Source of the DNA: Chthonomonadaceae bacterium
Lineage (GTDB): Bacteria > Armatimonadota > Chthonomonadetes > Chthonomonadales > Chthonomonadaceae
DNA: 48,986 nucleotides
Assembly: GCA_035650735.1 (NCBI GenBank)
Contig: DASRGZ010000204.1
Coordinates: forward strand, 1 to 48,986
Reading direction: 5' to 3'
The notes under the pieces are model-generated. The model did not search any database, was not told the origin of the DNA, and saw nothing but the letters and a program-made list of their open reading frames with translations. Shown here one piece after another: positions 10,857 to 14,588 of this stretch. Both the position numbers and the translations under genes were made by a program. The stretch's first letter is position 1, and each line of letters opens with the position of its first letter.

Positions 10857-10964
10857 CTGCCGGTGGCCCTGCCATAGAGCGTGGTTGCCTCTCGATGGCT
10901 CCCCTCCGACCATTGTTTCGTCAGGCGCTCCGGTAGATGCCGACGCCGGAAGGAAGAGCGAACC

Positions 10965-12140
10965 ATGTCTTGCCAAGAGACCACACGCCGTCAATTTCTA
11001 CAGAGCCTGGGCGCCTTCGCGGCGACCACAGCGCTGGATGGCTTTCCGCAGGGGGCACATGGGCCGAGCCGCCACACAGCGCCGACGGCTCCGGTTGGCA
11101 TTGCCCGCTGCGATACCTATGCGCTGCCCCAGGTCACCCAGCGACTGCAAACGCTGCTGGACCAGATTGGCAGCCTCCGGCGTCTGGCCGCCGGCAAGAC
11201 CGTTGCCGTCAAGGTCAACCTGACCGGCAATCCTGCGCAGCCCGCGCTGGGACTGCCCGCCAACCGCACCTATCAGGTCCATCCGCATATCGTGCAGGCC
11301 CTGGCGATTCTGCTTGACCGGGCCGGAGCCAGGCGCATCCGGTTTGTGGAAAGCACCTATAGCCCGGCTCCCTTCCAGCAGACCCTGCTCGCGGGCGGCT
11401 GGAACCTGTCTGCGCTGTCGGCCCTGCATGCCCGCGTCGAATTTGAGGATACGCGCAATCGGGGGCAGGGCGCAAAGTATCACCGGGTTGCCGTGCCCTG
11501 GGGAGGCGATCTGTTTCCTGCCTACGAGCTCAATCATTCCTACGTGGATTGCGATACCTATATCTCGTTGGCTAAGCTTAAAAACCACGTGACGGCGGGC
11601 GTCACGCTCTCCCTGAAGAACAATTTCGGTATCACGCCCACGGCCCTGTACGGCCAGCACGAGCCCAACGAGAATAGCTTCAGCAACCGGGGCAGCATTT
11701 TTCATGCGGGGATTGAGCGACCGGCGGCGGGCTTGCCGCAAGAGGTAAACCCGCACGGTCCGCGCCGTCCCAGCTACAGGGTGCCCCGTCACATCGTGGA
11801 TGTGGTCGGGATACGTCCTATCGATCTGGCCCTCATTGATGGGATCGAGACGGTTTCCGGTGGAGAGGGTCCCTGGTGTCCGGGCTTAGCCTTGCAGCGC
11901 CCCCATCTACTGATCGCAGGACGGAATCCCGTCTGCACCGACGCCATTGCGATGGTCTGTATGGGCTATGACCCCCAGGCGCGGTCCGCAACCGGGCCGT
12001 TCCCCGGCGACAACCATCTGGCGCTGGCGGCGCGGCGGGGCCTGGGCGTCCATGATCCACACCGCATCGAGGTGGTGGGCCTGCCCCTGGCGCAAGCAGC
12101 ACATCCGTTCCATTGGGAACCGGCGTGGCGCAATACCTAA
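10965..12140 (+). CDS. DUF362 domain protein with Tat signal
   Basis: TRRQFL twin-arginine motif; VAVKVNL, LAKLKNH...GVTLSLKNNFG, IDGI...GGEGP and NPVCTDA motifs. Confidence 0.88.
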   Translation: MSCQETTRRQFLQSLGAFAATTALDGFPQGAHGPSRHTAPTAPVGIARCDTYALPQVTQRLQTLLDQIGSLRRLAAGKTVAVKVNLTGNPAQPALGLPANRTYQVHPHIVQALAILLDRAGARRIRFVESTYSPAPFQQTLLAGGWNLSALSALHARVEFEDTRNRGQGAKYHRVAVPWGGDLFPAYELNHSYVDCDTYISLAKLKNHVTAGVTLSLKNNFGITPTALYGQHEPNENSFSNRGSIFHAGIERPAAGLPQEVNPHGPRRPSYRVPRHIVDVVGIRPIDLALIDGIETVSGGEGPWCPGLALQRPHLLIAGRNPVCTDAIAMVCMGYDPQARSATGPFPGDNHLALAARRGLGVHDPHRIEVVGLPLAQAAHPFHWEPAWRNT

Positions 12141-12294
12141 GAACAAACCGGTCGCTGGCATGTGGGCGATACCATCTATTTTCACCAGGAGATTCGCGCA
12201 ACAGGTGGGCGGGGCCGGTGTCGAACAGATTCGAGAGCGTGTGGAAGGTGGCAATGTCCTATAGCGCTTTCGTTCAACAGAAAGGGAACCGTTG

Positions 12295-13446
12295 ATGCGT
12301 ATCCAGAATGTCTGCCGCTTCTTCGCTATGGGAGTGGCCGTTATGGGAACGCTGCTTTCCGCGTCTGCGGCAGAAAAAGATGTTGCCTGGGTGGATCGGC
12401 GCGTGCAGCAGTGGCAGCCGACGGCGCGGGAACGGCGGTGGGAAGGAATCGGGTGGGCGAAAGATATTCGCACCGCTATCCAACTGGCAGGCAAGCATCA
12501 GAGGCCGGTGTTTCTGTTTACACTGGATGGGCACATGAGTGTGGGGCGCTGTTGAGGCGGCGCTTTTGCCATGAGAGCCGTGTCGCTCTCGGATCTGCGT
12601 GTGATTGCCATGTTGAACCGGTACTTCGTTCCGGTCTTCGTCAGCAATGAAGATTATGGGGAGAAGGGCTGCGCGCCTCCGGAAGAACGGGCGGAGCTGA
12701 ACCGTATTCATCAGGAAGGCTACGCCGCGCATCTGTCTGTGGGAACCGTGCACGCGTTCGTCCTCTCTCCAACGGGGCATACGCTGGACTCGCTGCATGT
12801 GGCCCAGGCGTTCAAGCCCGATACGCTGCTGGCCATGCTGGAGCGAACCGTTCAGAAGCTGGGAACGACACCGGGCGAACCGGTCTTCCCGCCCGCGCCG
12901 CGGCCTGCGCCCCAGACTCCGCCGGGCGCTTTAATGCTCCACTTAACGGCGCGCTATCTGCAACGCAAAGGAGACGATTACGCGCTTATCGAGGATACGG
13001 GAGGCAACTGGAGCGCGCTTCCTGGGGAAGACTGGATCACGCTGACGCAGGCGCAGTGGAAGCGGCTGCTGCCGCCCGGCCCGGTACGTGTCGGAGGAAC
13101 GTGGGACATTGACCCGGAAGTTGCCGCCAGCCTTCTCCTCCATTTCTATCCCCCGACCGAGAACAACGACCTGACCACGAACCGCATTGACCGCGAGTCG
13201 TTGCAGGCGACGATTCTCTCCGTATCCGGAGGCATTGCGCGCGCCCGTATAGAAGGCGCGCTGACGATGAAGCATCCCTTCTACCACAAAGATGATCAGA
13301 AATTCGCAGAGGCGACTCTGCTTGGATACATCACCTTCGATACCAAGAAACGCAAGGTGCGCTCTCTCCGCCTGGTCACCGAGGATGCGGTCTATCGTGG
13401 CGATGGGTCTCAACTTCCTTATGGGGTGGCCGTTACCAGCCGGTAG
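12295..13446 (+). CDS. Putative secreted thioredoxin-like selenoprotein (Sec at TGA 12553-12555)
   Basis: The two listed ORFs share one frame, joined by TGT TGA GGC GGC GCT TTT GCC ATG. The joined sequence RPVFLFTLDG..GRC-U-GGAFAMRAVSLSDLRVIAMLNRYFVPVFV resembles a DUF255/Thioredoxin_7-like fold. N-terminal signal peptide; SECIS-like hairpin downstream of the TGA. Confidence 0.8.
12556..12600 (+). promoter_or_regulatory. Bacterial SECIS-like hairpin
   Basis: Stem GAGAGC(12573-12578)/GCTCTC(12585-12590); loop CGTGTC with G at loop position 2, 23 nt after the UGA; lower pairing cc/gg and gcgc/gcgt. Confidence 0.7.
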
Positions 13447-13631: not shown

Positions 13632-14588
13632 ATGCGCGTCTTTGTGGCGGGAGCAACAGGCGTGATGGGACGGGCGCTGCTGCCCCAACTGTCGGCGGCG
13701 GGGCACGAGGCCATCGGGCTGGCGCGCTCGCCGGAGAAGCTGCCGCTGGTGGAGAAGTTGGGCGCGAGGACGGCGCGCGGCGATGTGCTGGATGCGGAGA
13801 CGCTGCGCCGTCTTATCCGCGAGACGCAGCCGGAGGCCGTTGTCAACCTGGCGACAGCGATCCCGCGCACGCTGCGGATGAGCCCGAAGGACTGGGAGGC
13901 CAACGACCGCGTGCGCGTGGAGGGAACGGCCAACCTGCTGGCGGCGGCGCGGGAGGCGGGCGTGCGCCTGTTCGTGCAGAATAGCTTCGGCTACGTCTAC
14001 CAGCCGCGCGGCGACCAATGGATAGAGGAGGACGCGCCGCTCACCTCGCAGGACTTTCGACGCTCGGAGGTGCAGGCGGAGGAGGTCGCCCGCTCCGGCA
14101 GCATTCCGGCTACCATCCTGCGCTTCGGGATGCTCATGGCTGCCGATGCCTGGCATACCGAACAGACGATTGCGATGCTGCGGCGCGGCCTGCCCTCCCT
14201 CGTCGGCGCGGGAGACAACTACCTCAGCCTGATCTATGCGGAGGATTCGGCGCGGGCGATCCTCTGTGCGCTGGCCAATTCGCAGGCCGCTGCCGGGCAG
14301 ACCTTCAACGTCGTGGACGATGAGCCGGTTCGCATGCGCGATATGCTCGCCTACGCTGCGCGCGTCCTGCATACGCCCCCGCCCAGGCACATCCCGCCGT
14401 TTCTGGTCAAGCTAAGCTACGGGGCCTTAGCCCTCGAAGTCCTGACCGCCTCCTACCGGATAAGCAACGCCCGGATCAAGCGGACGCTTGGCTTTGCGCC
14501 GCGCTATCCCACCTACCGCGAGACCTGGGCGCAGATCGCTCAGGAAGTCGGTTCCCGCGACCTTACGCCGTCGGAGGAGCTAAAATAG
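13632..14588 (+). CDS. NAD-dependent epimerase/dehydratase (atypical SDR)
   Basis: MRVFVAGATGVMGR Rossmann motif, FNVVDDEP, SNARIKRTLGFAPRYPTY. Confidence 0.9.
   Translation: MRVFVAGATGVMGRALLPQLSAAGHEAIGLARSPEKLPLVEKLGARTARGDVLDAETLRRLIRETQPEAVVNLATAIPRTLRMSPKDWEANDRVRVEGTANLLAAAREAGVRLFVQNSFGYVYQPRGDQWIEEDAPLTSQDFRRSEVQAEEVARSGSIPATILRFGMLMAADAWHTEQTIAMLRRGLPSLVGAGDNYLSLIYAEDSARAILCALANSQAAAGQTFNVVDDEPVRMRDMLAYAARVLHTPPPRHIPPFLVKLSYGALALEVLTASYRISNARIKRTLGFAPRYPTYRETWAQIAQEVGSRDLTPSEELK

Follow-up and report, generated by a model that had tools for sequence, protein, structure and literature searches.

DsbH and DsbD-gamma work in an extracytoplasmic setting, and a cis-Pro loop is typical of the DsbH/DUF255, DsbD-gamma, AGR and UAS families of the thioredoxin fold. 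In thioredoxin reductase, Sec is the nucleophile of the GCUG motif, whose chemistry is that of a selenenylsulfide ring. The thioredoxin domain of selenoprotein N (SELENON/SEPN1) lies at the C-terminal end of the protein. Bacterial SECIS elements are, as a rule, stem-loops located a short distance 3' of the UGA, and their apical loop has a G among its first positions. Selenoprotein N carries the motif SCUG in a thioredoxin-like domain facing the ER lumen (PMC12839072, PMC7474598), and its family is almost always found in the Sec form (PMC7539508, in a passage on algae). The likeness of SCUG to the GCUG of thioredoxin reductase is stated in PMC12839072. The SEPN1 mutant C427S,U428C traps SERCA2 (PMC7474598); that paper states that no SEPN1 structure exists, and bacteria go unmentioned in it.

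We compared these systems with a locus of the window, that is, the whole stretch of 48,986 nucleotides that was analysed; its features are collected in Table 1. Positions 12295-13446 are a single gene and not two. The 87-aa and 291-aa open reading frames have one frame in common, the sole interruption being the TGA at 12553-12555, and the five sense codons GGC GGC GCT TTT GCC separate this TGA from the ATG at 12571. This is the arrangement given in an earlier note on this DNA, which was correct in every detail; the note had also seen no convincing ribosome-binding site at ATG 12571, and by eye we found no Shine-Dalgarno-like purine run in the 15 nt of sequence preceding it. Read through, the frame yields a product of 383 aa containing ...SVGRC-U-GGAFAMRAVSLS..., and orthologues align across the TGA over the full length of this product. 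Among the 120 best database matches, 109 are shortened gene calls that start within a few residues after the TGA site, as expected from the earlier suggestion of a protein of about 383 aa mis-annotated as two genes, and 6 N-terminal database fragments stop exactly at ...GRC. The modelled thioredoxin fold described below also spans the TGA and, like these matches, points to one protein rather than two. The promoter/terminator scan gave no promoter-like site and one terminator-like site 180 nt downstream, no more than shuffles give. Among the sequencing runs listed as containing this DNA, none is recorded as RNA.

Table 1. Coordinates of the features of the putative selenoprotein gene.
Feature	Positions	Strand	Remarks
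Whole putative selenoprotein gene	12295..13446	+	383 codons plus TAG stop; alternative start TTG 12292, one codon upstream
Upstream ORF	12292/12295..12555	+	87 aa from TTG 12292, 86 from ATG 12295; ends at TGA 12553-12555
Downstream ORF	ATG 12571 to TAG 13444-13446	+	291 aa, same frame as the upstream ORF
Predicted Sec-type signal peptide, residues 1-25, MRIQNVCRFFAMGVAVMGTLLSASA	12295..12369	+	A-S-A motif before A26; putative cleavage site
Thioredoxin-fold domain, residues about 44-192, DsbH/DUF255/Thioredoxin_7 type	12424..12870	+	AlphaFold model, fold searches
Vicinal C-U pair: Cys86 (codon TGT) and predicted Sec87 (codon TGA)	12550..12555	+	TGA in 34/34, Cys in 32/34 orthologues
SECIS-like hairpin	12573..12590	+	6-bp stem GAGAGC (12573-12578)/GCUCUC (12585-12590; GCTCTC in the DNA); loop CGUGUC (12579-12584; CGTGTC in the DNA), beginning 23 nt after the UGA
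C-terminal beta-rich domain, residues 200-383	12892..13443	+	no assignable fold or family

Looking at the codon that interrupts the frame, we found TGA at the same place in every one of 34 distinct orthologous sequences (42-73% identity) from Armatimonadota, Planctomycetota, Verrucomicrobiota and Acidobacteriota. The frame was always continuous, and the check on codon identity in homologues proposed earlier thus turned up no TAA, TAG or frameshift. TGA also occupied the same alignment column in 12/12 orthologues at 45-66% identity (relatives search), and it was present in 22 of the 23 genome-contig loci covering the site (four phyla), in the 14 orthologues found in a 401-genome phylum sample (14/14) and in all 5 matches from a 251-genome Planctomycetota sample. 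In most of the 34 orthologues it lies inside an invariant GRC-U-GGA. The two that have no Cys directly before the TGA, both from Verrucomicrobiales, carry a Cys at +4 instead (RQ-U-GGAC), which suggests that a nearby Cys is required. The genome holds the Sec machinery that the earlier note had listed for checking: a tRNA-Sec with anticodon TCA (71.7 bits, above the Rfam cut-off), together with selA (535.7 bits), selB (368.8 bits) and selD (374.5 bits), all above their curated cut-offs, selD itself having 1 in-frame TGA. Furthermore, selA was found in 14/14 ortholog-carrying genomes of the phylum sample, compared with 215/401 overall. Judging from these comparisons, the in-frame TGA at 12553-12555 most likely encodes selenocysteine. 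Every refuting condition that the earlier note had set out was answered in favour of its reading.

The SECIS-like hairpin lies 17-18 nt downstream of the TGA, and its stem and loop were located exactly as the earlier note had stated. It is a stem-loop of the bSECIS kind, and as such a predicted site of SelB binding. A hairpin was present in all 34 sequences with its loop (CGUGUC, CGGGUC, GGUC, AGUU or GGC) 20-24 nt after the UGA; in five orthologues of the Armatimonas group it is a different, shifted one (GACACGG/CCGUGUC). Over the 34 sequences, 84.9% of the cells were paired (compare with 39.5-64.3% when the partner was slid), a value reached by 0 of 500 shuffles. Third-codon entropy ranged from 0 to 1.1 bits within the stem (stem column 42 having 0.0 bits and column 39 having 0.43) and from 1.26 to 1.69 bits in the flanks. 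The hairpin is thus kept in homologues, a point raised for checking beforehand, with the same distance retained and the third-codon positions silenced. Covariation is thin, double changes being seen at 1 of 7 hairpin pairs (G-C to A-U, in 3 sequences), and part of the conservation is protein-level since the stem falls in conserved codons. The fold of the 76 nt around the TGA is unexceptional alone (z = -1.36), meaning that the support for the hairpin comes from its conservation across genes. Rfam gave two chance-level matches only in 12400-12800; therefore no curated SECIS family applies. An 8-bp hairpin lying upstream, with the UGA in its loop (12545-12564), was also considered and was rejected, as it showed no compensating changes in orthologues; it probably arises as a side effect of the codons for G-R-C-U-G-G-A.

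The protein is predicted to be exported. The score of its N-terminal hydrophobic window is 2.12, and residues 1-23 are unstructured in the AlphaFold model (pLDDT 91.7). The signal-peptide-like N-terminus claimed earlier was recovered as a hydrophobic segment here and in 26 of the 34 orthologues; the five Armatimonas-group orthologues have no hydrophobic N-terminus. In the same model, a strand (72-77) is followed by a loop (78-87) and a helix (88-95), and Sec87 falls at the N-cap position of helix 1, the usual place of CxxC, in a thioredoxin fold resembling that of DsbH/DUF255. The model and the fold searches agree on this thioredoxin-like fold with C-U at the CxxC position, as had been claimed from the letters alone. 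U-G-G-C stands at the corresponding position of a paralogue encoded by the same genome, and His153 and His327 are conserved. The beta domain of about 180 residues that follows the thioredoxin fold gave no clear structural match, and a search of the PDB by sequence with the protein returned nothing below E 0.07. By analogy with thioredoxin reductase and selenoprotein N, we infer that the Cys-Sec pair would act as a redox centre.

We then considered the relatives that do without Sec. Among 80 database homologues spanning or ending at the site, the pair is Ser-Asp (SD) in 22 and Thr-Asp (TD) in 12, and Cys-Cys in 6, which answers the earlier question about Cys in homologues at the UGA position; in most of the others this position holds Gly, Asp or Ser. 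Most full-length non-Sec homologues have Ser-Asp, Thr-Asp or Cys-Gly at the pair and not Cys at the Sec position, so the module can exist without redox chemistry. At least 46 of 55 full-length homologues (search at E <= 1) are fused via a membrane helix to ECF sigma-70 domains, and most of the ECF-sigma-fused relatives have lost the Cys-Sec pair; stand-alone non-Sec forms make up only 5 of the 55 matches of 353 aa or more. Two proteins with sigma domains, P0158 and P0160, end exactly at ...GRC, and sigma-tethered Sec forms therefore probably exist; a metagenome scan for the P0160 locus found only other sigma factors. No conserved neighbouring gene was seen among 35 loci, so that the neighbourhood gives no pointer to a redox partner or substrate. 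A DUF1501 gene adjoins in 5 of the 35 loci, mostly in Planctomycetota, accompanied in two cases by PSCyt2/PSD1 genes. Such pairs are very common in Planctomycetota, so the adjacency was given no weight.

In our view it is probable that 12295-13446 (+) is one gene, its TGA most likely standing for Sec, whose predicted-exported protein of 383 residues uses Cys86-Sec87 at the active site of the thioredoxin fold as a redox centre. In the mechanism that we propose, SelB and Sec-tRNA(Sec) would bind the mRNA hairpin and the UGA would be decoded as Sec, after which the N-terminal hydrophobic segment would route the protein across the cytoplasmic membrane. Sec87 would attack an oxidised substrate (disulfide, sulfenic acid or peroxide) as the nucleophile, and Cys86 would resolve the adduct. 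The product would be a selenenylsulfide ring of eight members between Cys and Sec, of the kind formed at the GCUG end of thioredoxin reductase and also put forward for SCUG in selenoprotein N. Some reductant would recycle the pair, while binding of the substrate or of a partner would fall to the C-terminal beta domain. Where relatives are fused to an ECF sigma factor, these two domains would together act as an extracytoplasmic sensor.

It is also conceivable, though we hold it to be unlikely, that the selenoprotein is real and its Cys-Sec pair a ligand for a soft metal or metalloid (mercury, copper, arsenic and the like), which would make the protein a periplasmic metal chaperone, scavenger or sensor and not an oxidoreductase. 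Haft and Gwadz read the Cys-Sec of the SaoL, SaoB, SaoC, HgcA and MerT-like selenoproteins as heavy-metal binding (10.1101/2022.07.06.499078), this DNA is found in mine and soil metagenome runs, and the conserved His153 and His327 could supply extra ligands. However, the AlphaFold model puts the pair exactly at the nucleophile position of the thioredoxin fold, and the shift of the Cys from -1 to +4 in two orthologues suits a resolving residue more than a fixed chelate. Moreover, the 35 loci show no conserved neighbour with a role in metal resistance or transport. That the module is found joined to ECF sigma factors would suit a ligand sensor, but most sigma-fused forms are without any Cys at the pair (the SD and TD forms counted above).

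The same fusions are what speaks for a selenoprotein whose main role would be to sense a ligand or the redox state, or to regulate, by way of a partner protein and not as a turnover enzyme, that is, like the sigma-tethered relatives; P0158 and P0160, ending as they do at ...GRC, are in line with this. We regard it as very unlikely, since the stand-alone forms have neither an output domain nor a conserved partner gene and nearly all of them retain Sec, which is usually tied to catalysis (5/55 long matches are stand-alone and non-Sec, against the 109 Sec-type shortened calls in the best 120). Finally, annotation pipelines do treat the TGA as an ordinary stop, homologue P0182 has Trp at the Sec position, and TGA is a normal stop codon in this genome that terminates 15/44 long open frames in the window, but it is very hard to believe that the locus is a pair of genes, a pseudogene or the result of a sequencing error, or that Trp or some other standard residue is inserted at the codon, given a TGA shared by all the orthologues of four phyla in a continuous frame, a fold that runs across it, an ATG 12571 with no ribosome-binding site before it, a complete Sec machinery, and contigs of three sequencing runs (possibly the source of the window) with the same letters throughout the stretch.

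The reading that we prefer is that of a probably exported redox selenoprotein. The family at 12295..13446 was absent from the selenoprotein catalogues checked and unrecognisable among the 119 families of a 2026 review, and no description of it was found in the searched literature; the earlier description of the family as a poorly described one holds as far as Pfam, NCBIfam and this literature go. It is widespread, with hundreds of database entries and members in four phyla that live in soil and fresh water, and is most likely an addition to the bacterial selenoproteome. Gene callers systematically split it into a pair of "hypothetical proteins", with the result that the use of selenium by these phyla is under-counted. 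For a thioredoxin fold the active site is an unusual one, with a vicinal Cys-Sec where CxxC normally stands, and the fact that stand-alone members almost never swap Sec for Cys argues that selenium does here what sulfur cannot. With the sigma-factor-fused relatives, the question of what the module recognises can be approached as a natural experiment.

As regards the known systems, the Cys-Sec dipeptide, together with gene calls that are cut there in databases, is shared with SaoL, SaoB, SaoC, HgcA, MbdU and KCU-star (Table 1 of PMC13188914; Haft and Gwadz preprint). Those families have unrelated folds (MerB-like, ABC-binding protein, corrinoid protein and others), and none of them was matched by the protein in NCBIfam at E <= 1. 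The Sao/HgcA-type families are organometallic systems linked to anaerobes, and their operons are conserved; the neighbourhood of the gene studied here is not. With mammalian thioredoxin reductase the protein has in common a vicinal Cys-Sec followed by Gly; there, however, GCUG is in the flexible C-terminal tail of a flavoprotein, whereas here the pair is residues 86-87 of 383 at a helix N-cap, and no FAD/NADPH or flavoprotein domain was found in the protein.

The predicted fold is of the DsbH type, and Thioredox_DsbH/DUF255 (PF03190) gives weak matches in 17 of 31 family members. None of these reaches the Pfam gathering score (best E 9.4e-4; 15.7 versus 27 bits for the protein studied here), the motif is C-U-G-G-A instead of CxxC with Ala at +3, and an additional 180-residue beta domain is present. 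At the position of the cis-Pro loop the protein has Val-His, which also sets it apart from DsbD-gamma, AGR and UAS.

The best NCBIfam match of the protein is VPGUxxT (NF041382/NF041383; 'hypothetical protein OS_HP5' in Table 1 of PMC13188914). Both begin with an N-terminus that is exported or hydrophobic and continue with a thioredoxin-like domain in which Sec occupies the same position, 23 residues separating U from the FVPV strand. Against L077, a true VPGUxxT member (658 bits, 1 TGA, motif VPGUATC), hhalign gave a probability of 92% (E 5.8e-7, 70 columns). In contrast, the protein scores 17.4 bits against a cut-off of 350 and 11.8 bits against one of 275, and the scores of 10 relatives are likewise far below these cut-offs. 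The motifs differ as well: GRC-U-GGA, with its vicinal Cys and Ala at +3, here, and VPG-U-x-x-T/C there. Beyond the first half of the thioredoxin domain the similarity is lost, L077 continuing with a Lys/Glu-rich C-terminal part and only our protein with the beta domain.

Selenoprotein N offers a parallel to C86-U87-G88, a Cys-Sec-Gly within a thioredoxin fold that is predicted to be extracytoplasmic, and the spacing from U to the LLN..F[IV] stretch is presumably alike in the two. The differences are that SELENON has a type II membrane anchor where the N-terminus here resembles a cleavable signal peptide, and that the extra domain is C-terminal here. SELENON has an EF-hand, a family for which the protein gave no match at E <= 1, and no protein named selenoprotein N was among the 55 matches at E <= 1. 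As a lead only, when P0008, a natural homologue, was the query of an ESM Atlas features search, a 'Selenoprotein N' cluster came first (score 0.89, 190/256 features); the cluster was gone from the top three when the thioredoxin part alone was the query. We tentatively entertain the possibility that the family represents the selenoprotein N lineage in bacteria, as a branch of it: a Cys-Sec-Gly thioredoxin module, exported and found almost only in the Sec form, that some bacteria may have wired via a membrane helix onto an ECF sigma factor as a selenium-dependent transmembrane redox switch acting on transcription. If this kinship with animal selenoprotein N is true, the soluble bacterial members could be used as a tractable model for the chemistry of a human muscle-disease protein.

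The gene at 12295..13446 is almost certainly a genuine selenoprotein gene, and it is mis-annotated as two genes. The earlier note had described two open reading frames lying in one frame and split by a TGA, and on rechecking, each of its coordinates proved right. With TGA read as U, the readthrough product has 383 residues (...RPVFLFTLDGHMSVGRC-U-GGAFAMRAVSLSDLRVIAMLNRYFVPVFV...), Sec87 following directly on Cys86. The predicted mis-annotation was also found in public databases: out of 459 database hits the best 120 include 109 that fall below 340 aa and open at whichever start codon comes first past the site, with N-termini such as MRAVSL, VRAVSL and VSLSD and, where a name is given, the name 'hypothetical protein'; six further entries terminate exactly at ...GRC.

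Features of the selenoprotein gene and of its flanks
Feature	Position	Strand	Remark
Upstream flanking gene	10881-12140	+	DUF362 protein, twin-arginine-like N-terminus (TRRQFLQSLGAFAATTAL)
First ORF	12292..12555	+	closed by TGA 12553-12555
Second ORF, 291 aa	ATG 12571 to TAG 13444-13446	+	same frame; five sense codons after the TGA
Hairpin GAGAGC-CGUGUC-GCUCUC	12573-12590	+	loop begins 23 nt past the UGA
Downstream flanking gene	13632-14588	+	NAD-dependent epimerase/dehydratase

At the 35 loci compared, neither flanking gene accompanies the selenoprotein gene in a conserved way. A DUF1501 gene adjoins it in five of these, L061 (834-3833), L062 (887-3968), L027, L051 and L052, and is preceded in L061 and L062 by a PSCyt2/PSD1 (DUF1549/DUF1553) gene.

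Which residue homologues carry at the TGA codon had been left to be checked, and it was TGA in all or nearly all genes of each genomic set. A six-frame search of 61 genomes of relatives recovered orthologues in 12, the window's own included (E 1e-84 to 1e-265, 45-66% identity), each with exactly one internal TGA, which falls in a single alignment column within an invariant G-R-C-U-G-G-A. The scan of genome contigs gave 24 loci, titled Armatimonadota, Gemmataceae/Planctomycetota, Verrucomicrobiales, an Akkermansia-labelled MAG and Acidobacteria; TGA occupies the site in 22, the others being a sigma-factor fusion with GGG (L051) and a locus without that part of the gene (L066). The motif becomes HC-U-GGA in the Acidobacteria locus and RQ-U-GGAC in a pair of Verrucomicrobiales loci, which have no Cys at -1 but one at +4. 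An orthologue (E <= 1e-30) was found in 14 of 401 genomes sampled across the phylum, with one TGA in all 14, and the five matches from 251 Planctomycetota genomes likewise had one each. All 14 carriers are among the 215 of these 401 genomes that have selA, an overlap given without a p-value since related genomes are not independent. A further version of the gene, diverged and belonging to another organism, is present in the soil metagenome run X1 (24 kb contig, record 2); it matches the window at 12403-12590 and 13266-13292, and near the TGA and hairpin 4 of 50 nt differ.

Judged by the gene content of its assembly (224 contigs, completeness 97.6%), the genome can decode Sec, and the mechanism is the ordinary one. 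The machinery looked for was all present: tRNA-Sec (71.7 bits, cut-off 47; tRNA-SeC with anticodon TCA according to ARAGORN), selB (368.8 bits), selA (535.7) and selD (374.5), the three genes each exceeding the curated cut-off. selD and tRNA-Sec are neighbours on one strand, separated by ~1.5 kb (G000:C198:18925-21512, loci L001 and L018), and selD itself has an in-frame TGA (...VRCAG-U-ASKIG...). Since TGA closes 15 of the 44 long open frames of the window, it is not reassigned genome-wide.

The SECIS-like hairpin proposed downstream of the TGA matched its description in sequence and loop distance. Its 76-nt fold is unremarkable on its own (z = -1.36), so that the case for it rests on comparison. 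TGA-anchored segments of 63 nt, taken from 34 distinct orthologues, aligned without gaps. A 7-pair helix (columns 27-33 with 38-44) had 84.9% of its cells paired, a value reached by 0 of 500 shuffles, against 39.5-64.3% when the 3' partner was slid by 1-3 columns. The encoded peptide varies while pairing is kept (RAVSLS, RAGPLS, RTGPFS, RASSLS), and silent sites are nearly frozen in the stem, with third-codon entropies of 0.0 and 0.43 bits (columns 42 and 39) vs 1.26-1.69 bits outside. At one helix pair three sequences have A-U in place of G-C, both sides having changed, and another is A-U or G-U. The evidence for this candidate SECIS is good but, because such covariation is thin, not conclusive. 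Five Armatimonas-labelled MAG loci (L048, L049, L050, L054, L060) have a different hairpin, GACACGG/CCGUGUC, ~4 nt further upstream; they keep GRC-U-GGA and have a shorter C-terminal domain. The hairpin region had no match in Rfam. An 8-bp hairpin with the UGA in its loop (12545-12564, GGCGCUGU-UGAG-GCGGCGCU) was rejected: it shows no compensating changes in orthologues and is probably a by-product of conserved codons.

The expected thioredoxin-like fold was borne out by an AlphaFold2 model built with a 31-sequence alignment (pLDDT 91.7, pTM 0.85) and by Foldseek, with a match to 7tkv_B (E 2e-4). The model has a strand at 72-77, a loop at 78-87 and a helix at 88-95 with U87 as its N-cap, which would put the TGA codon midway through the fold. 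The C-terminal 184 residues, modelled separately (pLDDT 94.3), gave no convincing match in the structure search. Export is suggested by the hydrophobic N-terminal stretch that 26 of the 34 orthologues have; the other eight are cut by contig ends (three) or of the Armatimonas type (five).

Pfam returned only a sub-threshold match to Thioredox_DsbH (E 0.015), a model that matched 17 of 31 relatives weakly and none above its cut-off, and NCBIfam only VPGUxxT models, far under their cut-offs. To a true VPGUxxT type-1 gene (L077), which scores 658 bits and has one TGA, the similarity covers the front half of the thioredoxin domain (hhalign 92%, E 5.8e-7, 70 columns), with identical U-to-FVPV spacing; its motif and C-terminal part are unlike. 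By motif, Pfam identifier and NCBIfam identifier the family was not recognisable among the 119 prokaryotic selenoprotein families that a review of May 2026 tabulates (PMC13188914, Table 1); we could not find a description of it, in keeping with the poorly described family of the earlier note. According to the Haft and Gwadz preprint (10.1101/2022.07.06.499078), which lists the small number of selenoproteins known to contain a Cys-Sec pair, such pairs are rare; it also mentions 'redoxin domain proteins related to WP_012872293.1'.

We compared the pair in 80 database proteins spanning or ending at the site. It is Ser-Asp in 22, Cys-Gly in 13, Thr-Asp in 12, Cys-Cys in six, Cys followed by the protein end in six, Cys-Pro in four, Cys-Asp in three, Ala-Ser in three and Cys-Leu in two, the remainder being single cases that include Cys-Ser and Cys-Trp. 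Cys homologues of the Sec codon thus exist, and the Cys-Cys forms are its classical counterpart. In nearly every case a full-length form without Sec has ~580-690 aa, in which ECF sigma-70 regions 2 and 4 are followed by a linker, a single hydrophobic helix and the two-domain module; only five stand-alone examples came to light. In P0122 (668 aa), ECF sigma-70 is fused through one membrane helix to a module with Cys-Cys. Sigma-tethered Sec forms probably exist as well, because P0158 (360 aa) and P0160 (372 aa), which have the ECF sigma-70 part and the membrane helix, break off right at ...GRC, as though truncated by a Sec TGA. From the sigma fusions we infer that the module can also act as a sensor. 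The stand-alone homologue P0182 (387 aa) reads GRC-W-GGA; its Trp may reflect a genuine TGG codon, or else a TGA read by the gene caller under another genetic code. The interest of what appears to be a new family lies in Cys-Sec at the CxxC position, near-exclusive Sec use and sigma-tethered relatives.

The same genome encodes a paralogue of 446 residues (G000:C224:42246-42842; L040, 1462-2799 +) with 27% identity and one in-frame TGA (...NDERC-U-VFAGAVRE...), and therefore has a second Cys-Sec thioredoxin-like gene. Further subfamilies in relatives' genomes read ERC-U-GYA, GCT-U-NNG and ALC-U-TNA, with one TGA each. A thioredoxin-like ORF at G000:C48:19076-19276 (L067), with an in-frame TGA in a U-x-x-C motif (...LLDFSAAPA-U-GGCVRLE...), looks like another unannotated selenoprotein of this genome; it lacks an obvious signal peptide, and its C-terminal part is helical.

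As to function, we lean towards a redox centre formed by the two residues, where Sec would attack and Cys would resolve. This fits because Sec occupies the nucleophile position of the thioredoxin fold, because a paralogue of the same genome has U-G-G-C at the matching place, because a Cys stays near (at -1 in 32 orthologues, at +4 in two) and because Cys-Cys homologues exist. The chief competing reading is that the pair binds a metal or metalloid; gene neighbourhoods at the 35 loci gave no clue to a substrate. The favoured Sec-attack, Cys-resolve chemistry is that of the GCUG end of thioredoxin reductase, and for selenoprotein N it is supported by the C427S,U428C trapping mutant described in PMC7474598. 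A profile search listed no protein named selenoprotein N among 55 of at least 353 aa, and an Atlas features search with the thioredoxin part alone did not rank the 'Selenoprotein N' cluster first; with the natural homologue P0008, this eukaryotic cluster was top-ranked (0.89, 190 of 256 features), and kinship to animal SELENON is a lead.
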